A stretch of 64,000 nt of DNA, taken from the NCBI GenBank assembly GCA_016699365.1, contig CP064973.1:429684-493683 (forward strand), given 5' to 3'. The notes under the pieces were generated by a model. It was not told where the DNA came from. It saw only the letters and a program-made list of their open reading frames with translations, and ran no database searches. Positions 8,306 to 58,695 of this stretch are shown here, in pieces. Source of the stretch: Candidatus Nomurabacteria bacterium. GTDB lineage: Bacteria > Patescibacteriota > Minisyncoccia > Phycocordibacterales > UBA9973. Both the position numbers and the translations under genes were made by a program. Numbering within the stretch: the first letter of the stretch is position 1; each line of letters begins with the position of its first letter.

Positions 8306-9856
<1,551 letters not shown>

Positions 9857-29001: not shown

Positions 29002-29607
29002 ATGGTTGTACCGCTTGTTCAAAATGTAAACCAGGCAGGTGACAGTGTGTCCCTGGACCCGGAGTACATCGAACACTTCACAGAATTTCTCGAATCTGTT
29101 GACCTTCCTGGTCCGGATTACTTCGAGTTTGCGCAAGTTGTGCGAGCTATGGAAAGTGAGAACTCTGGGATGTCAAAAGAGCAAATTTACCGCATGGCCT
29201 ACATTGGGTTCAAAGCCCAAGGTCATCCTGCAAAGATGTTTATAGATACTGCTATGCAGTACCTGTCGTACTTTGAAGAACATAAGGGTAAATTTGAACA
29301 GTATTTGTCCAGCGAGACCGATACTGCTATTGGCACAAAGAGATCTGAGAATATCGCTCTCACAAAAAAGAACGGAGAAAATCTGCAGAAAATTGCTGAT
29401 CTGAAAGCTCAGATTAAGGCGATCGAAACAGAGAATTCTCAAAATTCTCAAAAGATTAAAATCAATGAAGAGGCCATAAGTAATGAGGAAGAACGTATAC
29501 GTAAAAAACGTACTCGTTTTGAAACTACATACGAATGGTTCAAAGAGTTGATCAATACCGACATTGCAAACATGAACAATTTTCTATCACAAAACCAAAA
29601 ACCATAA
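29002..29607 (+). CDS. Coiled-coil protein, hypothetical
   Basis: 201 aa. A globular N-terminal half followed by a heptad-rich C-terminal half (KIADLKAQIKAIETENSQNSQKIKINEEAIS). GC ~46%. Confidence 0.4.
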   Translation: MVVPLVQNVNQAGDSVSLDPEYIEHFTEFLESVDLPGPDYFEFAQVVRAMESENSGMSKEQIYRMAYIGFKAQGHPAKMFIDTAMQYLSYFEEHKGKFEQYLSSETDTAIGTKRSENIALTKKNGENLQKIADLKAQIKAIETENSQNSQKIKINEEAISNEEERIRKKRTRFETTYEWFKELINTDIANMNNFLSQNQKP

Positions 29608-29610
29608 AAA

Positions 29611-30603
29611 GTGGAAAAACCAAACAGTATTCTTAATTCCAAGGAAAAAGTTGTCGGTCTTATAACTGGCCTGATGATTTTAGCCGGTATTGGTGTGGGG
29701 CTGTATTACATCCTCCCGCCTTTATTATTGATTATCACAAACCTGTTGAGGCTCGGCCTCCTGGTAGGTGGTACATTACTGGTTACGGTGGCTTTATTTA
29801 AAGCTCGTAAATTAATCCGTGCCTCGTATGAAGTCTTTATTCAAAAGCTTTGGCGAGCTCTTGCCAACAACGATCCTATTGCGTTGATGAAAATCAAAGT
29901 AAAGGATTGGTGGGAATCACTTGAAGTTGTAAACAAGCGAATACAAACTCTGCGCGGGTCAGAAGCGCTGCTTGAAGCAGCTTGCAATGACAACGCTGAC
30001 GACGCTGAACAATTTATGCAACTTGCTAAAAAAGCTGCATCGGGTGATAAGGGCAAACAATCTCCTCAGGCCATATTGAAAACAAGACAGGCGCTTCGTA
30101 GGCTACAAGCCAACAATCAGTTAGTACCGCGATTACAAGCCGTAAAACAGGCGATCGCGTTACTTGAAAAACTGTACGAGCGTTGGGAGCTTGATATCAA
30201 GGATCTTGAGGATGAGATTGAAGTGCGGAGTATCAGCTTAAAAGCTGTTCGTGACGTATCATCAGCTCTTGAAGCTGCTGAAAGTATTATGAACGGAACA
30301 CCTGATCAGCGTGCAATGGAAGAACTTGCCAATCAAGCATATGCCGAATTGGTAAGCCAACATGTTGGGAAGGTGAAAAGATTCCTCTCGAAATCCAAGG
30401 GTTGGATTGAGGAGTCAGACTTAAAAGAAGCAGTGCTTACTGATGAGGGATTAAAACTCCTTGATTACGACGAGAAATCTTTTAAGCAACTGGTAGATTT
30501 CAAGCAACAGCTTGAAAATGATCCAGTACTGTCTCAGAAAGTAGTGCTCCCAATATCGAAAAACGCCGACGCGGTGATCGAGTCATTTAGTAAATTGAAG
30601 TAA
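29611..30603 (+). CDS. Membrane-anchored coiled-coil protein, hypothetical
   Basis: Two N-terminal TM helices followed by a ~250-aa helical/coiled-coil domain. Translationally coupled to 29002-29607 (4-nt gap). Confidence 0.45.
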   Translation: MEKPNSILNSKEKVVGLITGLMILAGIGVGLYYILPPLLLIITNLLRLGLLVGGTLLVTVALFKARKLIRASYEVFIQKLWRALANNDPIALMKIKVKDWWESLEVVNKRIQTLRGSEALLEAACNDNADDAEQFMQLAKKAASGDKGKQSPQAILKTRQALRRLQANNQLVPRLQAVKQAIALLEKLYERWELDIKDLEDEIEVRSISLKAVRDVSSALEAAESIMNGTPDQRAMEELANQAYAELVSQHVGKVKRFLSKSKGWIEESDLKEAVLTDEGLKLLDYDEKSFKQLVDFKQQLENDPVLSQKVVLPISKNADAVIESFSKLK

Positions 30604-30642
30604 TTTTCCTTTTCATTTTTTAAACAAAAAACAAATAAGCAA

Positions 30643-32490
30643 ATGAGTATCATTAGCACTTGGAAACGCTTAGGATGGTTGACACAGTTCATCATCCTCG
30701 CAGCAATTTTCACTTACCCTACAATTTTGGGTTTCAATTACCTGAACAGCAAGGGAATCATAGGTGGAAAAAACAAAGAAACTGTGCAGCTTGAAAAAGC
30801 TACGCAGGAACAGAACATAATCTTAACTTCAGCACCATCGAACTACAAAACAGTTGGTTTGACAATGATGCCCTTGCCTTCTTCAACAGTCGTACGCGAC
30901 GCAACACGCGTTAGTATCGAATACTGGGGAATGGCATGGCAGTCACAGGCCGGGTTTGCTCTTGCAAACGGAGGACCGCTTACCACTGAAGGTAGTATGT
31001 ACGACAAGGCGAAAATAAATTTTAATTTTATTCGTCAAGATATGTATGACAAAATGTCGGAAAAAATGCTAGATATCGCAAAGCAATTTGAAGATGATCC
31101 GGAAGGAACACCAATCTATTTACTCGGAATTATGGGTGATGGAATGGTTACCTTTGGGGCACCGCTTATGGCTCGATTGCAGGAAATCAATCCCGACTTT
31201 CGTCCTGTGGGTATATTTACCCCAGGATTCTCAGACGGAGAAGATAAATTTATCGGACCATACGAATGGAGAATTGATCCTCAAAAAGCTCGTGGTGGAA
31301 TCTGCGTTGTATATTTAAAGGATGGTGATCATAACCTTGCGCTCAAATGGGCTGCAGACAATGGAGTACCAGTGAATCCGGATCCAACAACATGGAGTGC
31401 GAATGCACTTAATTTCGTATCTGCCGAGGATTTCCTCGATGCAGCACGAAAATATAATGCACGCAAATCCAACAAGGTGGAATTAACAGAGGTTATAACT
31501 GATGAAAATGGAAAAGTCATTAAACGTGGCGACAAAGTTTTCAAAGAAATTAATTGTGTTTCTACTTGGTTGCCGGGAGACGAAAAAGTTTTCAGCGGTT
31601 CACCGAATGATGACATTATAAATTTGATGTCCACTCGAGAAAATCGTATGCAGATGCCTTGTTTGGTTATTGGATTAAACAAACAACTTGAGATGCATCG
31701 AGGAGATGTTGAAAAATTCATTTGGGCAAGCTTACAAGCATCAGACCAGATAAAGACCTATGACGGAGCACTTCGTTTTGCCTGCAAGGCGCAAGCAGAA
31801 ATTTATAAAGAAGGAGCTGAAGAGAATGGTAAATTCTGGTACGACTATTATCGGGGAAAAACAATTACAACTTCGTTTGGTCGCCAAGTAACATTGGGTG
31901 GATCACGAGCTGCAAATTTAGCCGACAATGCTGAACTGTTTGGGCTCTCTGGTGGAGTTAATCGTTACGAAGCTGTATTCAATTACTTCGGTAATTATAT
32001 GGCTAGATTATATCCTGAAGACGTTCCGACAGTTCCTGATATTAACGAAATGCTTGATTTGTCATATTTGCAGAATGTATATAGTAAATACAAAGGCAAT
32101 ATGACTACAGCAGATGAACCTCAAATGACTCCTGGTGGAATTGTCGACAAGGTTTCTGAAAGAAACTATAAAGTCGAATTTGCCAGTGGTTCAGCACAGC
32201 TAACAGCGGAAGGCATTAAAACTCTCAATGAGATGTATCAATCACTCGCTGTTTCTGATCTCAAAATTCAGGTTTATGGTCACACCGACAGTGATGGTGA
32301 TGATGGTCCCAATATGGAGCTGTCACAAAAGCGAGCCGATGCGGTCAAATATTTCCTGATTAAAAAGGGGATTAACCCAAAAAGGTTTACTGATGTGATG
32401 GGCTACGGAGAATCAAATCCTATTGCGGAAAACACATCTGCAAACGGGAAGCAAAAAAACCGTCGCGTGGAGATTGAGACCGGTATGTAA
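30643..32490 (+). CDS. Membrane-anchored protein with a large central domain (possibly NMT1/SsuA-like solute-binding) and C-terminal OmpA-like peptidoglycan-binding domain
   Basis: N-terminal TM helix. C-terminal OmpA_C motif: VYGHTDSDGDDGPNMELSQKRADAVKYFLIKKGINPKRFTDVMGYGESNPIAENTSANGKQKNRRVEIE. Lies directly upstream of the NitT/TauT-type permease and ATPase. Confidence 0.5.
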   Translation: MSIISTWKRLGWLTQFIILAAIFTYPTILGFNYLNSKGIIGGKNKETVQLEKATQEQNIILTSAPSNYKTVGLTMMPLPSSTVVRDATRVSIEYWGMAWQSQAGFALANGGPLTTEGSMYDKAKINFNFIRQDMYDKMSEKMLDIAKQFEDDPEGTPIYLLGIMGDGMVTFGAPLMARLQEINPDFRPVGIFTPGFSDGEDKFIGPYEWRIDPQKARGGICVVYLKDGDHNLALKWAADNGVPVNPDPTTWSANALNFVSAEDFLDAARKYNARKSNKVELTEVITDENGKVIKRGDKVFKEINCVSTWLPGDEKVFSGSPNDDIINLMSTRENRMQMPCLVIGLNKQLEMHRGDVEKFIWASLQASDQIKTYDGALRFACKAQAEIYKEGAEENGKFWYDYYRGKTITTSFGRQVTLGGSRAANLADNAELFGLSGGVNRYEAVFNYFGNYMARLYPEDVPTVPDINEMLDLSYLQNVYSKYKGNMTTADEPQMTPGGIVDKVSERNYKVEFASGSAQLTAEGIKTLNEMYQSLAVSDLKIQVYGHTDSDGDDGPNMELSQKRADAVKYFLIKKGINPKRFTDVMGYGESNPIAENTSANGKQKNRRVEIETGM

Positions 32491-35016: not shown

Positions 35017-35475
35017 ATGCAAAAAACAAAGGAAAAAAACAAAGACAGGAAACATGTTGTGCCTCGTACAAAAGTCGGACGCTCAAAACATAGTGGTTTT
35101 GGAATATTTGCAGTGGACCCTATAAAGAAAGGTCAGTTCATAATCGAATATGTCGGAAAGATTTGTACAAACAAAGAGGTTGAAGACAATGTGGGTATGT
35201 ATCTTTTTGAATTGAATAACAAATTTACAATCGATGGTACTACTCGTAAAAATAAAGCTCGATATGTGAATCACTCATGTCGTCCCAATGCAGAAAGTGA
35301 TGTGAAAGGTTTGCGTGTTTTTATATCTGCAATAAAAGATATTGCTCCAGGTGAAGAGGTGACATATGATTATGGAAAAGAATTTTTTGATGAATTTATA
35401 AAACCAAAGGGTTGTCAGTGTGGGTTCTGTGACGGGAAAGGAAAGAAAATACCACTAAATAAAAAGAAAAAATAA
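35017..35475 (+). CDS. SET-domain protein-lysine methyltransferase
   Basis: SET core (GFGIFAVDPIKKGQFIIEYVG, RYVNHSCRPNA, EEVTYDYG) and post-SET Cys cluster CQCGFC. Basic N-terminal and C-terminal tails. Confidence 0.7.
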   Translation: MQKTKEKNKDRKHVVPRTKVGRSKHSGFGIFAVDPIKKGQFIIEYVGKICTNKEVEDNVGMYLFELNNKFTIDGTTRKNKARYVNHSCRPNAESDVKGLRVFISAIKDIAPGEEVTYDYGKEFFDEFIKPKGCQCGFCDGKGKKIPLNKKKK

Positions 35476-45109: not shown

Positions 45110-46420
45110 TTATTTTAGTTCTTTTATGTATTCGAGAAGGTTTTTTATTTTGACTGTTTCTTGAGATCTAGTAGCCATATCGCGTACGAGTACTGCGTCC
45201 TCTAGAGCTTCTTTTTGTCCAAATAGTATTGCGTAGGGGATTGCAAGTTTTTCAGCGATAGCAAGTTGTTGAGAGAGGGTGTCTTTTGATAGAGATTGAG
45301 CGATAGGGATATGTGCTTTGCGTAAAATTTCAATTACATTTAAACTTTTTAGTTTTGCATCAGCTCCGAGTTGAATGAAATATATTTTAGGTTTCTTCAT
45401 GATACGAGGAGTAAGCTTTTTGTACCAAGGTGCGACGATTATTCGATCTACTCCGATTGATATTCCTACAGCAGGGACGTCTTTCTTGCCACCTAGGTGC
45501 TTTGCTAGATAGTCATATCTTCCTCCTCCTGCGATCGTTAGTCCACTTCCATCTTCTGATATACCTGTATCTATTATCTCAAATACAGTGCGTGTGTAAT
45601 ATGAAAGCCCGCGAACAAGACATTTGTTTATGTTATATGGGATTCCCATTTCTTCTAGATACTCCAAGACTTCTTTGAAGTGTTTTTTACAGTCATGACA
45701 TAGATATGCGATAGAGTCTGGAGCTCCTTCATTGAGTTCTTTTGTCTTTGGATCTTTTGAATCAAGTATTCGAAGAGGGTTGGTCTTTAGTCGTTCGCGG
45801 TCTATAGCAGGCAAGACATTGATATGCTTTTTGTAGTAGTTTGTAAGCTCTCGAATATATGCACCTCGGCATTCTTTGTCGCCAATTGAGTTTATATCTA
45901 CAGACAAGTTACTAGCTCCTGCTTCTTCGAGGATTGTTATACCTGTTCGGATAGCGAGTGCGTCCATTATACTTTTTTCACTTCCTAGTATGTCTGCATC
46001 AAATTGCCAGAATTGTCGGTAACGTCCTTTTTGAGGATTGTCATGACGAAATACTGGTCCATACTGATAATGCATAACCGGCTGGGGCATATTTTGCATT
46101 CCATGTTCTATATATGCACGCATAAGAGAAGCTGTGTGTTCTGGGCGCATAGCAAGCTTGTCACCGCCTTTAGTTTTAAGAGTGTACATTTCTTTGTCTA
46201 CAATATCTGTACCTTCTCCAATTGAAGATGTGAATACTTCTTCTTGTTCTAATATTGGTGTTTCAATTGGTTTGAAACCATAGTACATAGAAACTTCTTG
46301 AGCTTTTTCGAAGAATCCTTGGAATAAATAGTATTCATCTCCAGCAATATCACGCATACCTTTTGGGCTTGCGAGAGGTTCTTTCTTCACTTTTTTTGTT
46401 TGTTCTTTTGACATAGGCAT
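45110..46420 (-). CDS. hisS: Histidyl-tRNA synthetase
   Basis: Class II aaRS motifs (MRPEHTASLMRAY, GGGRYDYL) and a C-terminal anticodon-binding domain. Confidence 0.85.
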   Translation of the reverse strand: MPMSKEQTKKVKKEPLASPKGMRDIAGDEYYLFQGFFEKAQEVSMYYGFKPIETPILEQEEVFTSSIGEGTDIVDKEMYTLKTKGGDKLAMRPEHTASLMRAYIEHGMQNMPQPVMHYQYGPVFRHDNPQKGRYRQFWQFDADILGSEKSIMDALAIRTGITILEEAGASNLSVDINSIGDKECRGAYIRELTNYYKKHINVLPAIDRERLKTNPLRILDSKDPKTKELNEGAPDSIAYLCHDCKKHFKEVLEYLEEMGIPYNINKCLVRGLSYYTRTVFEIIDTGISEDGSGLTIAGGGRYDYLAKHLGGKKDVPAVGISIGVDRIIVAPWYKKLTPRIMKKPKIYFIQLGADAKLKSLNVIEILRKAHIPIAQSLSKDTLSQQLAIAEKLAIPYAILFGQKEALEDAVLVRDMATRSQETVKIKNLLEYIKELK

Positions 46421-47019
46421 TAGTTTACTTGTTCATAATTATGATAAATTCCTGGTGTTACTGAAATTGTAGAAAAAGGGAATAGACGTAAAAATGTCTT
46501 TCCTACGATATGATCTTCGGGCAATGTTCCCCAAGTTCGTGAGTCAGAACTAGCTGGACGATTGTCTCCCATAACAAAGTATTCTCCTGCTTCCAATGTG
46601 TAACTAAGTTCTACTTGTTTTGGAACATTTCCTTTTATATAAGGTTCATTTAGATTGAATCCTTCTGGGTTGGATTCATTTGTTATAGTAACTTTTCCAT
46701 TTTCAGCTACATGAACACTCTCACCCGGTAAACCTATAATTCTTTTTATAAAATATTTTGTTTCATCTTTTGGATATTTAAACACAATCACATCACCGCG
46801 CTTTGGTTCACTGACTCGATATGATATCTCATCTACTATCAAATATTCTCCATCTTGGAATGTTGGTACCATAGAACTTCCAGAAACTATAAAAGGCTGT
46901 GCAACAAATGTGCGCACAGGTATTACTATAAGTAGAGCAATTATTGCAAAGCGTACTACATCCCAAATACTCTCTTTTTTATTTGGTGTAGCGACTTCTG
47001 TAGATTGGTTTTCTTCCAT
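46420..47019 (-). CDS. lepB: Signal peptidase I
   Basis: S26 boxes: SGSSMVPTF, GDVIVFKYP, GDNRPASSDSR. Confidence 0.8.
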   Translation of the reverse strand: MEENQSTEVATPNKKESIWDVVRFAIIALLIVIPVRTFVAQPFIVSGSSMVPTFQDGEYLIVDEISYRVSEPKRGDVIVFKYPKDETKYFIKRIIGLPGESVHVAENGKVTITNESNPEGFNLNEPYIKGNVPKQVELSYTLEAGEYFVMGDNRPASSDSRTWGTLPEDHIVGKTFLRLFPFSTISVTPGIYHNYEQVN

Positions 47020-54305: not shown

Positions 54306-54374
54306 TCGCTTCGTTAGAAAAAACCACAAGATTTCTTTGCACAAAAAACCTTAAAGGGTATAATTAAACTACTA

Positions 54375-55673
54375 ATGTCGAATTTTCAAATTGCGCTTTC
54401 AGTAATATTTGGTTTTGCTTTTTTGCTAGCCGTAGCAATATTTTCTGGTTTCATAAAAATTCCAGATAGAAATGCTGGTGGAATTGAAGGTGCGACTGGT
54501 CAGGTTGTAATGTGGGGAACTATTGATGATGGGGCTTTTAGAGATACGATAGAAGATTTCAATAGAAACAAAGATTACTCACTGCGCTATATAGAAAAGA
54601 AGTCTTCAACTTTCGATGCAGAGCTAATAGAAGCATTGGCTAGCGGTAAAGGCCCAGATCTTGTGCTTGTTTCGCAAGATATGTTATGGAAATATAAAAA
54701 CAAAGCTTACGTAATACCTTATGAAGGGTATAGTGAGCGTGTCTTTTTAGATACTTTTATTCCCGAGTCTGAAATATATTTGGTAAAAGAGGGAATACTC
54801 GCTCTACCTTTTACTGTTGATCCACTGGTCCTCTATTACAATAAAAATACTTTTACATCTACTGGGATAGTCTCCTATCCAAAGACTTGGACTGAACTTG
54901 TAAATATTGTTCCGCTTCTTGTTGAGAAAGATGCTAGTGGAAATATAATTCGTGGAGCTATAGGTATGGGATCTTTTACAAATGTTACTCATGCAAAAGA
55001 AATACTCGCTACACTTTTTTTACAATCAGGTGTTGATATTACATCATACGACCGTACTACTGGGGAACTAGACGCAGCTATAAAATCTACATCAAATAAT
55101 TCATCAGTTGCAGAACAAGTAACAGAATTTTTCACAAATTTCACAGATCCAGTATTGTCTACTTACACATGGAATACTGCTCTCCCAGAATCTCGTGATG
55201 CATTTATAGCGGGCGACCTGGCTATGTATATAGGATATGCTAGTGAGGTGGAAAGTATCAGGGCAAAAAATCCAAATCTAGATTTTGATGTTGCTCCGAT
55301 TCCGCAATTGGACAATACAAAGACTAAGGTCACTTTTGGTGATATGAAGGGAATTATGATAATGAATGCTTCTAAAAACCGAAACACAGCATATGTTGTC
55401 TCAGCATTGCTGTCAGGCAATGAATTCCTGTCTTCTTTTACCCCAAACCTAAATCTTCCGCCGGTTCGCAGAGACTTGCTTGCTAGTAGACCAACAGACC
55501 CAATACTTTCCATATTCTATACAGAGGCTCTTATATCTCGTGGTTGGATTGATCCATCTAGTATAAAGACAACAGACATACTTAGTCGTCTAACTTCTGG
55601 AATCTACGAACCATACCAAGCAGTTTCTCTTGCTAACGAAGAATTATCTTTATTTATAAATAGCGGAATATAA
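54375..55673 (+). CDS. ABC transporter solute-binding protein (family 1, sugar type), membrane-anchored
   Basis: N-terminal TM helix followed by an SBP_bac_1-like domain. An orphan gene: no permease or ATPase is adjacent. Confidence 0.55.
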   Translation: MSNFQIALSVIFGFAFLLAVAIFSGFIKIPDRNAGGIEGATGQVVMWGTIDDGAFRDTIEDFNRNKDYSLRYIEKKSSTFDAELIEALASGKGPDLVLVSQDMLWKYKNKAYVIPYEGYSERVFLDTFIPESEIYLVKEGILALPFTVDPLVLYYNKNTFTSTGIVSYPKTWTELVNIVPLLVEKDASGNIIRGAIGMGSFTNVTHAKEILATLFLQSGVDITSYDRTTGELDAAIKSTSNNSSVAEQVTEFFTNFTDPVLSTYTWNTALPESRDAFIAGDLAMYIGYASEVESIRAKNPNLDFDVAPIPQLDNTKTKVTFGDMKGIMIMNASKNRNTAYVVSALLSGNEFLSSFTPNLNLPPVRRDLLASRPTDPILSIFYTEALISRGWIDPSSIKTTDILSRLTSGIYEPYQAVSLANEELSLFINSGI

Positions 55674-55677
55674 TTTT

Positions 55678-56079
55678 ATGAAAAAAATACCTTCTATATT
55701 TTCTGGTTTACTAATATTTTCATTTATATTTATATTTAGTTCTGTGCTTTCTCCTGATTTTGCATCAGCCGAATCTTTGATTCCATGTGACGGTGGTCCT
55801 ACAAATGGATGTGACTTCAACGATCTTATGGCTTTGGTAAACAATGTGATCAACTTTTTGATATTTGACCTCGCACTACCTATTGCGGCTGTGGTTATAG
55901 CTTATGCTGGTTTCTTATTTCTCACTAGTGGAGATGAGCCAGGCAAGCGCACAAAGGCAAAGAACATGCTTGTGAATATAGTTATAGGTTTGGTACTTGC
56001 ACTTGCGAGTTGGCTTATAGTGCAAACAATACTTTTATCACTCGGCTATGATGGACCACTCTTTCTTAGTAACGATTAG
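55678..56079 (+). CDS. Small secreted 2-helix hairpin protein, paralog 1 of 5 (VirB2/TrbC pilin-like topology)
   Basis: Signal peptide, Cys pair (PCDGGPTNGC), then hydrophobic helix, charged loop GDEPGKRTKAKN, hydrophobic helix. Confidence 0.5.
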   Translation: MKKIPSIFSGLLIFSFIFIFSSVLSPDFASAESLIPCDGGPTNGCDFNDLMALVNNVINFLIFDLALPIAAVVIAYAGFLFLTSGDEPGKRTKAKNMLVNIVIGLVLALASWLIVQTILLSLGYDGPLFLSND

Positions 56080-56097
56080 TAATATATAATTTTAAAT

Positions 56098-56571
56098 ATG
56101 AAAAAGAAGATTTTTGTTTCTATAATTTCTCTGAGTTTCTTGTTTGCTTTCTTTCCAAGTATCAATGTTTACGCTGCGTGTCCGCCAAATTGTGATACAG
56201 GCGATATAACTGCAGGGGGAGATGGGGATATAACTGCTGGTGGTGACGGTACTGGTACAGCTGGAGGTGATACTGGATCTGGAGATTTTAGCTTAGATGT
56301 TACAATCGACAATCCTCTCGCAACTGACATAGATACTCTACCAGAATTCGTGGAAGAGGTTTTGCGAATAGTTTTGAAAGTTGGGATTCCAATAGTTACA
56401 TTATTTATAATCTACGCTGGCTTACTATTTGTTATGGCAGCTGGTAATCCTGAAAAGCTCAAAAAGGCAAAGGAAACACTTCTGTGGACACTTGTGGGAG
56501 CTGCGGTACTGCTCGGAGCGTGGGTTATAGCAGAGGCGATACAGGGCACACTTGTACAACTAGGAGCTTAA
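56098..56571 (+). CDS. Small secreted 2-helix hairpin protein, paralog 2 of 5 (VirB2/TrbC pilin-like topology)
   Basis: Signal peptide, ACPPNC, GDITAGGDG repeats, helix, loop GNPEKLKKAKE, helix. Confidence 0.5.
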   Translation: MKKKIFVSIISLSFLFAFFPSINVYAACPPNCDTGDITAGGDGDITAGGDGTGTAGGDTGSGDFSLDVTIDNPLATDIDTLPEFVEEVLRIVLKVGIPIVTLFIIYAGLLFVMAAGNPEKLKKAKETLLWTLVGAAVLLGAWVIAEAIQGTLVQLGA

Positions 56572-56590
56572 TATTTAATCAATAAATTTT

Positions 56591-56905
56591 ATGGGAGGAA
56601 CAGCAACAACATCATCATTTTGTCCGGTCACTATCAACACAATTGCAGATTTTTTGAATTTTTTTACATGTCTTATAAGTAAGTCTGTAATACCACTACT
56701 CATTGCTCTTGCTGTGATTGTGTTTATATGGGGAGTGCTCAAGTTTATTATGAATGCTGATGATAGTACAAAGCGTGAAGAGGGAAGGAATTTCATAATC
56801 TGGGGTCTTGTAGGACTTTTCGTAATGGTCTCTATTTGGGGTATTGTAAATATACTAAACAATACATTTGGAGTAAGTAATGTTATTCCACAGTTGCCTA
56901 TGTAG
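56591..56905 (+). CDS. Small 2-helix hairpin protein, paralog 3 of 5
   Basis: No signal peptide. Cys pair, helix, loop DDSTKREEGRN, helix. Confidence 0.45.
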   Translation: MGGTATTSSFCPVTINTIADFLNFFTCLISKSVIPLLIALAVIVFIWGVLKFIMNADDSTKREEGRNFIIWGLVGLFVMVSIWGIVNILNNTFGVSNVIPQLPM

Positions 56906-57018
56906 TGTGTGTTGTTTTTGCTCCTAGCTACTGTATAATTTACGTATAGCAAATTTGCACTTGTTCCACGGTCTGGGATAGGGCAATATTATAAATTAGT
57001 AATTTTTAGAATCATTTT

Positions 57019-57321
57019 ATGGATATTACAGATGTTTTAGCTAAAATAGGTGACATATTAAATGTTATCATCCCACTTCTTATAACTCTTGGAGTTATAT
57101 ACTTTATTTGGGGTGTTATCAAATACGTTACAGCAAAAGATGAAGATGCGCAGAAAGAAGGTCGCAATACTATCATCTCTGGAATCATTGGCTTGTTCGT
57201 TATCGTAGCTGTATGGGGTCTTGTAGGAATCCTACAGAACACATTTGAAACAGGAGACAATACTATCTCAAACGATGATATTCCTTGTATCCCTGGTGTT
57301 GGAACAAACGGAGATTGTTAA
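57019..57321 (+). CDS. Small 2-helix hairpin protein, paralog 4 of 5
   Basis: Helix, loop KDEDAQKEGRN, helix. C-terminal CIPGVGTNGDC. Confidence 0.45.
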   Translation: MDITDVLAKIGDILNVIIPLLITLGVIYFIWGVIKYVTAKDEDAQKEGRNTIISGIIGLFVIVAVWGLVGILQNTFETGDNTISNDDIPCIPGVGTNGDC

Positions 57322-57331
57322 TCTATAATAC

Positions 57332-57649
57332 ATGCCGGCACTTTTTCACAAAGCTTTGGCATCGACTACAGATTGTACATCTAGTATCGATGGGCTCCTT
57401 GCAAAGATAAATCAATATTTGATAAATCCTCTTATTGTGTTTATGTTTGCGGTAGCACTAGCATACTTTATGTTTGGTGTAGTACAGTTTCTAACTCATC
57501 AAGAGAGTTCAGACGAACGCGCAAAAGGTCAGCAGCACATGCTATACGGAGTGATTGGAATGTTTATAATGATCGCCGTGTTTACAATCATGAGAATACT
57601 TGCAAACACTCTCGGTGGAGATACAACTTGTCTGCCTACTACAGTCTAG
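57332..57649 (+). CDS. Small 2-helix hairpin protein, paralog 5 of 5
   Basis: Helix, loop QESSDERAKGQQ, helix. C-terminal TCLPTTV. Confidence 0.45.
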   Translation: MPALFHKALASTTDCTSSIDGLLAKINQYLINPLIVFMFAVALAYFMFGVVQFLTHQESSDERAKGQQHMLYGVIGMFIMIAVFTIMRILANTLGGDTTCLPTTV

Positions 57650-57664
57650 TTTAAAAAAGCATAG

Positions 57665-57700
57665 AAAAAAACTGCTTCACAATTGTGAAGCAGTTTTGCT
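57665..57700. terminator. Terminator hairpin flanked by A and T runs, ending the five-gene array
   Basis: AAAAAAACTGCTTCACAATTGTGAAGCAGTTTTGCTTTG. Confidence 0.55.
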
Positions 57701-58368: not shown

Positions 58369-58695
58369 TTATTTAGTGAATTGTTTAATTATCTTGCCAA
58401 TATCGATACCAGCGATATTGAAGAATTTTTCCCCAGTCCTCTGCTTCAGGATTCGCTGGGTTTGTTCTTCAGCATCTTTTTCAGAGAGCCCTTTCCCAAT
58501 AACCTTTCCATTTTCATCTCTACCGCTCATTAGCATGGCTTTGATTTTTAGGAAGGTTTGGGCTTCATAGGCCTGGGCATTTCGCTCACGCTCCTCAACC
58601 GGGCTTTGATTCAGTGCCTCCAACAGTTTTGTATCTGTTGGTAATATTTCCTGAATTACAGCAAGTTTCACTTTGAATCCAAATTTCGGGAACAA
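58369..58695 (-). CDS. Hypothetical 108-aa ORF, possibly the frameshifted C-terminal part of the upstream SPFH-like gene
   Basis: TTG start overlapping the end of 58668-59426 in another frame. Helical, charged sequence typical of SPFH C-terminal regions. Confidence 0.3.
   Translation of the reverse strand: MFPKFGFKVKLAVIQEILPTDTKLLEALNQSPVEERERNAQAYEAQTFLKIKAMLMSGRDENGKVIGKGLSEKDAEEQTQRILKQRTGEKFFNIAGIDIGKIIKQFTK

Follow-up and report, generated by a model that had tools for sequence, protein, structure and literature searches.

A Candidatus Nomurabacteria bacterium (GenBank assembly GCA_016699365.1, contig CP064973.1, positions 429,684 to 493,683) carries a tandem array of five small genes, and this array is the subject of the present report. 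The whole stretch of 64,000 nucleotides (nt) is called the window below, and the five paralogues are named P1 to P5 in the 5′ to 3′ order. They encode five distinct members of the T4SS_pilin family (PF18895) of the VirB2/TrbC superfamily, and we consider it reasonably probable that they are the Paceibacteria version of the known Patescibacteria arrays and serve a heteromeric surface structure built by a type IV secretion system (T4SS). Most of the doubt about this reading falls on the filament and on its dependence on a T4SS, not on the family. Arrays of this type are already in the literature; the present one was rediscovered correctly and is not new in kind. Why is it still worth describing? 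Few systems have been shown to be indispensable to a cultured Patescibacterium living as an epibiont, and T4SS genes with their pilin arrays belong to them. Comparison across species indicates that the five pilins behave as fixed parts of one machine, not as interchangeable variants, and that their companion in Paceibacteria is a substrate-binding protein (SBP), not a secretion ATPase. Both points are open to test in cultivable systems, few as these are, and they would bear on the T4SS as the proposed conduit between epibiont and host.

Five pilin-like genes in tandem

The array occupies 55678-57649 of the window, with all five genes on the forward strand, as follows.

55678-56079, forward strand: P1, 133 amino acids (aa), with a signal peptide, the most TrbC-like among the five
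56098-56571, forward strand: P2, 157 aa, with a signal peptide and, N-terminal to the hairpin, a tail of Gly/Asp-rich GDITAGGD repeats
56591-56905, forward strand: P3, 104 aa, without signal peptide, with C11 and C27 in the N-terminal tail
56906-57018, forward strand: non-coding gap of 113 nt between P3 and P4
57019-57321, forward strand: P4, 100 aa, without signal peptide, with the C-terminal Cys pair C90/C100
57332-57649, forward strand: P5, 105 aa, without signal peptide, the most divergent paralogue

This arrangement was first noticed in a prediction made from the sequence alone (the original prediction), which described five consecutive genes of 100-157 aa on the same strand with gaps of about 10-115 nt in a supposed CPR (candidate phyla radiation) host. 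The listing of open reading frames (ORFs) agrees with it, giving intergenic gaps of 18, 19, 113 and 10 nt from P1 to P5, and the organism is indeed a CPR bacterium of the class Paceibacteria. As for the starts of translation, a GGAGG-type ribosome-binding site is absent at all five pilin starts (checked upstream, 55638-57331), and the sequence ATTTT stands directly 5′ of the ATG in four of the five genes.

Each product is a helix-loop-helix membrane hairpin of about 70 residues. Hydropathy analysis finds two segments of transmembrane length in every one of P1 to P5 and an extra N-terminal signal-like segment limited to P1 and P2, in keeping with the claim of signal peptides in two members and none in three. 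The five charged loop strings quoted in the original prediction, including GNPEKLKKAKE, DDSTKREEGRN and KDEDAQKEGRN, are all present verbatim, and the Cys pairs said to flank the core are found as exactly two Cys in each protein, all outside the hairpin (C37/C45 in P1, C28/C32 in P2, C11/C27 in P3, C90/C100 in P4 and C15/C100 in P5). The GDITAGGD repeats ascribed to one member belong to P2, which has two copies and a degenerate third one, and two to three copies are seen in close relatives. Two of the proposed signatures hold only in part. Of the motif (I/V)IP(I/L) at the start of the first helix, the Pro is common to all five when the sequences are read by eye, while the residues around it vary (ALPI, GIPI, VIPL, IIPL and INPL, that is, x-(L/I/N)-P-(I/L)). 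Likewise by eye, the Trp of helix 2, which had been called conserved, is present in four of the five and is replaced by Phe in P5. An automatic alignment of the five paralogues does not place the Pro in one column, and its invariant positions are M1 and G104 only. An AlphaFold2 model of P1, built from an alignment of 70 sequences, predicts a helix at residues 4-24, corresponding to the signal peptide, followed by the hairpin helices 47-83 and 88-121, with a mean pLDDT of 71.5.

The proposed paralogy of the five genes was borne out by BLASTP comparison of all pairs among them. P3 and P4 are 59% identical over the hairpin (E 1e-24), P1 and P2 are 32% identical, P5 is 32% identical to P3 and 33% to P4 (its matches have E 1e-14 to 1e-15), and P1 shares 21-29% of its residues with P3, P4 and P5. 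Excepting the pair of P3 and P4, identity among the paralogues in the window is 19-33%, and P2 and P5 are the sole pair without a match. Judged by these matches, the paralogy of P1 to P5 is far beyond chance.

To which family do they belong? The original prediction read them as VirB2/TrbC-like T4SS pilins and suggested the Pfam TrbC and T4SS_pilin models as a check, and both models do match. With PF18895 T4SS_pilin, whose gathering score is 26.6 bits, P1 (44.8), P2 (38.4), P3 (39.0) and P4 (44.4) score above the threshold, and P5 at 25.2 bits is slightly below it; P5 is tied to the family through its 32-33% identity to P3 and P4 and through the hidden Markov model (HMM) of the family. With PF04956 TrbC/VirB2 (gathering score 27.9 bits), P1 is above the threshold at 31.5 bits, P2 (19.1) and P5 (14.9) are below it, and P3 and P4 are not among the matches listed. 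PF18895, and TrbC as well, is also found as a precomputed match for identical proteins in public metagenome-assembled genomes (MAGs). Homologues number 867, and among the 120 listed nearly all carry PF18895; the organism names given for the listed ones are all CPR/Patescibacteria lineages or plain 'bacterium'. In addition, the NCBIfam model NF045849 (Mbov_0395 family pilin-like conjugal transfer protein) matches all of P1 to P5 with E 2e-9 to 5e-5, at scores of 23-37 bits that are all below the model cutoff of 40. For P2 to P5 its E-value is better than that of Pfam TrbC, and for P1 the two are similar (3.6e-8 versus 2.1e-7). The name of this model presumably points to integrative and conjugative elements of Mycoplasma. 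The similarity bears on the origin of the pilins, that is, whether a monoderm MPF_FATA system or diderm T4SSs were their source.

The same cassette in related species

A search of GTDB species genomes with P4 orthologues gave 333 relatives, and 80 loci were retrieved together with flanks of 10 kb. The informative titles of these records name Paceibacteria or Paceibacterota, Nomurabacteria, Wolfebacteria and Minisyncoccia, and many other titles are generic ('uncultured Candidatus Saccharibacteria bacterium', 'Patescibacteria group bacterium' or 'uncultured bacterium'). The family HMM detects five, sometimes six, tandem pilin ORFs in nearly every one of the 80 loci. When the ORFs are labelled by their best match in the window, the order 1-2-3-4-5 is found in 58 of the 80 loci, which come from different species; this count is from a census biased to arrays with a P4-type gene, since the loci were chosen through similarity to P4, and other compositions are unsampled in it. 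The remaining loci are mostly variants with six genes or arrays truncated where the contig stops. Orthologues have a median identity of 43-52% to their counterpart in the window, and the median margin of the best over the second-best paralogue is 26-53 bits. The fixed order together with such clear margins indicates five old, one-to-one orthologous groups. Thus, P1 to P5 are five ancient paralogues, and most related species have an orthologue of each in the corresponding position; the conserved order of the five genes argues for five non-redundant subunits.

The paralogues differ in what their orthologues retain at the N-terminus. P3 orthologues have exactly two Cys in 71 of 86 cases, and 48 of the 86 possess a signal-peptide-like N-terminus that is absent in the lineage of the window. 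Among P4 orthologues, the alignment of which contains 22 invariant columns, 72 of 85 start about 23 residues earlier and have a signal peptide, and none of the 76 P5 orthologues has one. In the window, in-frame stops lie 5′ of the P4 ATG in the 113-nt gap. The window lineage has, it seems, lost the signal peptides of P3 and P4, and the gap at 56906-57018 may be a decayed remnant of the segment that encoded the leader of P4.

It is to be noted that, in some members, the parts outside the hairpin are more changeable than the hairpin. Among close relatives, the hairpin of P2 is almost invariant, and its repeat tail and Cys pair vary. Variation of an exposed tail with constancy of the hairpin speaks for surface exposure of P2. 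In some species, the hairpin of P1/P2-type orthologues is preceded by Fn3 or CHB_HEX_C_1 domains, within extensions of 300-650 aa that give Fn3, CHB_HEX_C_1 and Ig-like matches, and P5-type orthologues have C-terminal extensions of 250-670 aa without any family match. If the topology is N-out/C-out, these extensions would lie outside the cell, and the domains and long tails then count likewise for surface exposure; such extended orthologues may be adhesin-like pilin fusions. There are also natural fusions of two hairpins, 200-270 aa in length (for example, P4-type and then P3-type), which hint that the fused subunit types would be neighbours in an assembled structure. Examples of both kinds are the following.

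Extended pilin orthologues: locus L030, 7160-9013; L033, 6992-8386; L094, 6885-8669; L037, 10254-12578; and others
Two-hairpin fusions: proteins P0001 (P4-type plus P3-type), P0005 and P0019; ORFs in loci L018, L029, L039, L041, L053, L056 and others

What is conserved around the cassette is its upstream side. In the window, the following elements precede P1.

54336-54364, forward strand: promoter-like site TTTGCA-17-TATAAT with 10 of 12 consensus matches, in a region where the number of such sites is no higher than in shuffled sequence; a candidate start of the SBP-pilin transcript
54375-55673, forward strand: SBP homologue of 432 aa (PF01547 SBP_bac_1, 77 bits) with a single N-terminal transmembrane segment, ending 4 nt before P1

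The SBP homologue, which shows weak similarity to MalE and GanS types, has no permease or ATPase gene beside it. Across the related loci, an SBP homologue is found directly upstream of the cassette in 77 of 81, with a gap to P1 of at most 11 nt in most of 78 loci, and further upstream a methyltransferase gene is found in 74 and gyrA in 72 of the 81. Genes downstream of the cassette show no conservation. Two homologues (P0117 and P0087), chosen for a possible virB4 neighbourhood, proved to belong to this gyrA-SBP cassette as well.

The cassette is native chromosomal DNA. In the window it is placed in ordinary chromosome, downstream of gyrA, a methyltransferase gene and the tightly coupled SBP gene; its GC content equals that of the rest of the window, and the composition is uniform. 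Among the contents of the window are 16S rRNA, RNase P RNA, five tRNAs, SecA, GyrA, ribonucleotide reductase, pyruvate kinase, HisRS and signal peptidase I (gene at 46420-47019). The NCBI entries KBD26_03685, KBD26_03690 and KBD26_03700, assigned to a 'Candidatus Pacebacteria bacterium', have the same sequences as P2, P3 and P5, respectively. The locus is also found, nearly identical, in several sequencing runs and in the MAGs GCA_017991335.1 and GCA_018061905.1, and activated sludge and groundwater are among the sample types in which the lineage occurs (for example, SRR11088448 and SRR8640622). Two other candidate explanations of the locus were also considered: horizontal transfer or a mobile element was rejected in view of the uniform composition and the conserved housekeeping synteny, and a role in defence likewise, there being neither a family match nor a matching context.

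From pilin genes to a proposed surface structure

How might five such proteins work together? In the mechanism that we favour, the hairpins would insert in the cytoplasmic membrane in such a way that the two ends face outwards and the charged loop faces inwards. The Sec pathway and signal peptidase I, by which the leader would be cleaved, would serve P1 and P2, while P3 to P5 would insert leaderless as short-tailed hairpins, and disulfides might stabilise the exposed tails. The subunits would then be used by a chromosomal MPF_FATA-like T4SS (VirB4, VirB6 and PrgI) supposed to be encoded elsewhere in the genome, and five non-redundant subunits would give a heteromeric surface structure. It would be a pilus or else a prolongation of the channel across the wall, and it would contact the host cell on which the epibiont depends.

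Closest to this picture are the arrays already published for Patescibacteria. Southlakia epibionticum has an essential T4SS cluster with six PF18895 genes, SEML1_0014-0019, together with VirB4, PrgI and VirB6-like genes in the same cluster (Wang et al., 2023, PMC10633639). In its transposon sequencing table, the four of the six pilin-gene rows retrieved are each scored essential (PMC10633639), and the whole pilin array is called essential both in that paper and in a later review (PMC10633639; PMC12857230). The fixed order of five genes fits this essentiality. In a survey of 3,035 Patescibacteria assemblies, VirB4 was present in 2,417, VirB2-like genes were found in 1,948 of the VirB4-containing assemblies and near virB4 in 1,135, and 441 arrays of 2-11 pilin genes had an average within-array identity of 25% (Quinonero-Coronel et al., 2025, PMC12102498). 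The survey counts as a tandem array at least two PF18895 or PF04956 genes of Patescibacteria in tandem or one gene apart (PMC12102498), and here five stand in tandem. A review of 2025 calls such pilin arrays remarkable (PMC12857230). A surface filament or host contact has been proposed for the T4SS_pilin family by inference (PMC10633639; PMC12102498; PMC12857230); the role suggested here matches that proposal and is arrived at in the same manner.

The array of the window resembles the published ones in carrying PF18895 with or without PF04956, in its tandem same-strand genes of about 100-160 aa, in the low identity among paralogues, in its chromosomal site, in a monoderm ultra-small host and in having no relaxase context. 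It differs from them in position: it lies away from a T4SS cluster, after the gyrA, methyltransferase and SBP genes, whereas the published arrays were mapped near virB4 (Fig. S9 legend) and are most abundant in Microgenomatia and Saccharimonadia, and virB4 of Paceibacteria is usually found near dnaA/dnaN (PMC12102498). A fixed order of five orthologues across Paceibacteria, a coupling to SBP and a lack of virB4 linkage were not found described in the portions of PMC10633639 and PMC12102498 that were consulted.

Comparison with other known systems gives partial likenesses. Canonical VirB2 and TrbC are encoded by a single gene in a diderm virB or trb operon, and the protein has a long leader and is cyclised head to tail. 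Like VirB2 of the Ti plasmid and TrbC of RP4, the hairpins have two hydrophobic helices and a short charged loop, P1 and P2 have a predicted leader peptide, and P1 passes the Pfam TrbC threshold. Unlike them, P3 to P5 lack a leader, although the majority of P3 and P4 orthologues in other species, unlike those of P5, have a signal-peptide-like N-terminus, and there is no virB3, virB4 and virB6 cluster around the array. With the virB2 arrays of Bartonella and Anaplasma phagocytophilum it shares several divergent tandem copies. In those animal pathogens, a role in antigenic or host-receptor variation is ascribed to the arrays (cited in PMC12102498), whereas the paralogues in the window are old, with one-to-one orthologues in a fixed order. 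Mbov_0395/MMCAP2_0565, to which NF045849 refers, is likewise a two-helix membrane protein of a conjugation system, of 80 residues, but it is a single gene in a mobile element, compared with five genes in a chromosomal cassette here. The pilins of the archaeal Ced and Ted DNA-import systems are VirB2-like and work in a chromosomal, non-conjugative relative of the T4SS in cells with no outer membrane (PMC9905601). This is a functional analogy only: those systems import DNA, and no sequence or fold match of the window pilins to them was obtained.

Several observations weigh against a T4SS-built filament or limit the link to VirB2. The first concerns linkage. In the window, neither VirB4, VirB6, VirD4, PrgI nor any other T4SS family was found by Pfam scan of every ORF of at least 385 aa and most smaller ones, which bears out the absence of VirB4, VirB6 and VirD4 noted in the original prediction. 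T4SS genes were likewise not found on overlapping MAG contigs, at the left end and about 6 kb past the right end, and none of the 80 related loci has a VirB4-like P-loop ORF up to 10 kb away from the cassette. As no T4SS gene is linked to the cassette, the connection to a T4SS in this lineage rests on family membership and on other classes. The second concerns similarity, since that to canonical VirB2 is, on the sequence evidence, remote. When the alignment of 70 pilin family sequences was compared by hhalign with seven MPF_T VirB2/TrbC-family plasmid proteins (the VirB2 starting sequence was checked at 99.2% identity to an annotated virB2), the probability was 6.6% and the leader region alone was aligned, a weak negative in view of the shallow VirB2 alignment. 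Fold searches return generic helical hairpins only. In a Foldseek search of the P1 model against PDB, the best E was 1.2, with the c subunit of ATP synthase and designed hairpins at the top, and the pilin family profile found no solved pilin among PDB sequences, the top match being FliL with E 0.24. The predicted fold of P1 is thus compatible with a pilin without being specific for one, and the T4SS_pilin assignment is made because of the Pfam models and the context in other lineages. Third, the loops of P3 to P5, counted from their sequences, are net neutral to acidic. Known conjugative pilins have basic loops that line the lumen, unlike P3 to P5. Finally, no pilus of T4SS_pilin proteins has been observed in any Patescibacterium according to a review (PMC12857230).

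For these proteins to be T4SS components without any filament is unlikely, but it is the alternative to be taken most seriously. The hairpins would stay in the membrane and line or gate a channel with VirB6 and VirB3, and no pilus would be made. For the small pilin-like proteins found in conjugative elements of monoderms, such a non-filament channel has been proposed, and all five proteins are similar to NF045849, though the scores do not reach the cutoff of that model. The extremely conserved hairpin core is what one expects of an intramembrane part. In the same direction, the VirB4 clade of Patescibacteria nests within MPF_FATA, whose Gram-positive members have no pilus (PMC12102498). On the other hand, the large Fn3 and carbohydrate-binding-type domains on the outside ends of orthologues suggest a displayed structure, and five or six different subunits are many for the lining of a channel.

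It is improbable that the five genes encode mutually redundant versions of a single pilin, retained to vary the host range or the antigens. Such a role has been proposed for the virB2 arrays of Bartonella and Anaplasma and suggested for those of Patescibacteria, for which the average within-array identity was cited above (PMC12102498). The exposed repeat tail of P2, different among close relatives, is what such a role would lead one to expect. Families used for variation, however, normally show lineage-specific expansion and gene conversion, whereas here the number, order and identity of the paralogues are kept in the 58 of 80 species with clear one-to-one orthology, as counted in the census biased to P4-type arrays. 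The essentiality of the S. epibionticum array, including the four of its six pilin genes seen individually, also stands against redundancy (PMC10633639). Thus, the fixed order and the orthology argue against interchangeable variants.

Is it conceivable that pilin is a mere family label, and that the five proteins form a T4SS-independent membrane complex with the upstream SBP, for instance as small anchoring or organising subunits of an uptake system? The tight and nearly constant coupling to the SBP gene, the lack of an accompanying permease or ATPase gene, and the absence of T4SS genes near any of the loci would suit this possibility. But gyrA, methyltransferase and SBP genes are conserved in order as a block, and the linkage may be plain synteny in small genomes. 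Moreover, the T4SS_pilin family is inside the essential T4SS cluster in Saccharimonadia (PMC10633639) and near virB4 in the 1,135 assemblies mentioned above (PMC12102498). We regard such a complex as highly doubtful, slightly more so than redundant variants. The last alternative, holins, class II bacteriocins or other small toxic membrane peptides, which the original prediction had itself kept in reserve, has nothing but size and two-helix membrane topology in its favour and is hardly credible: no holin or bacteriocin family is among the Pfam, NCBIfam and PHROGs matches of P1 to P5 (those in PHROGs are only weak and to entries of unknown function), the neighbouring genes include none for phage functions, lysis, immunity or ABC exporters, and the cassette keeps a conserved housekeeping position across the whole class.

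The heteromeric T4SS-built structure thus favoured may be carried one step further. It might be possible that a fixed five-subunit pilin module, translationally coupled to the SBP-fold protein and separate from virB4, builds one heteromeric organelle throughout the class Paceibacteria. This is a speculation to which we give rather little credence; if true, an organelle of pilin and SBP, for example one in which the base or tip of a pilus captures host-derived solutes, would be a new architecture of T4SS pili and would offer a concrete handle on the uptake of host material by epibionts.

Downstream genes and other features of the window

The array was supposed to end at a strong terminator followed by lipoprotein and SPFH-like genes. 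A perfect hairpin is indeed found there.

57668-57697, strand not assigned: likely bidirectional terminator, a perfect 13-bp hairpin with 5 of 13 pairs G-C, between the convergent P5 and lipoprotein genes

This hairpin was scored on both strands, with the better T-tail on the minus strand, and is thus likely to terminate in both directions and not to be dedicated to the array. The lipoprotein gene downstream has a plausible lipobox. For the SPFH-like label of 58668-59480, no support came from Pfam, NCBIfam or PHROGs. At 58369-59480 on the minus strand, a 5-nt insertion at about 58711-58715, relative to the MAG GCA_017991335.1 (locus L005), splits a gene of 350 aa, which has no family match, into ORFs of 270 and 108 aa; the split gene would be either a pseudogene or an assembly error.

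Some other features of the window deserve a short mention. The 16S rRNA gene at 8306-9856 on the forward strand stands alone, and neither 23S nor 5S was found in the 64-kb window, which means that the rRNA genes are unlinked. At 29002-32490 on the forward strand there are three co-directional genes for proteins of 201, 330 and 615 aa. The sole match of the first is a weak one to ATG16, read as coiled-coil, the second has no family, and the sole match of the third is a C-terminal OmpA-like peptidoglycan-binding domain; the three may form an envelope-anchored complex. A bacterial SET-domain protein of 152 aa (PF00856, 89 bits) is encoded at 35017-35475 on the forward strand of this CPR genome. 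Finally, a polytopic membrane ORF of 580 aa without Pfam match at 60652-62394 on the minus strand adjoins a GT2 glycosyltransferase gene (59995-60672). The 5′ end of this ORF overlaps tRNA-Leu (62327-62408, minus strand), and its true start must therefore lie further in.

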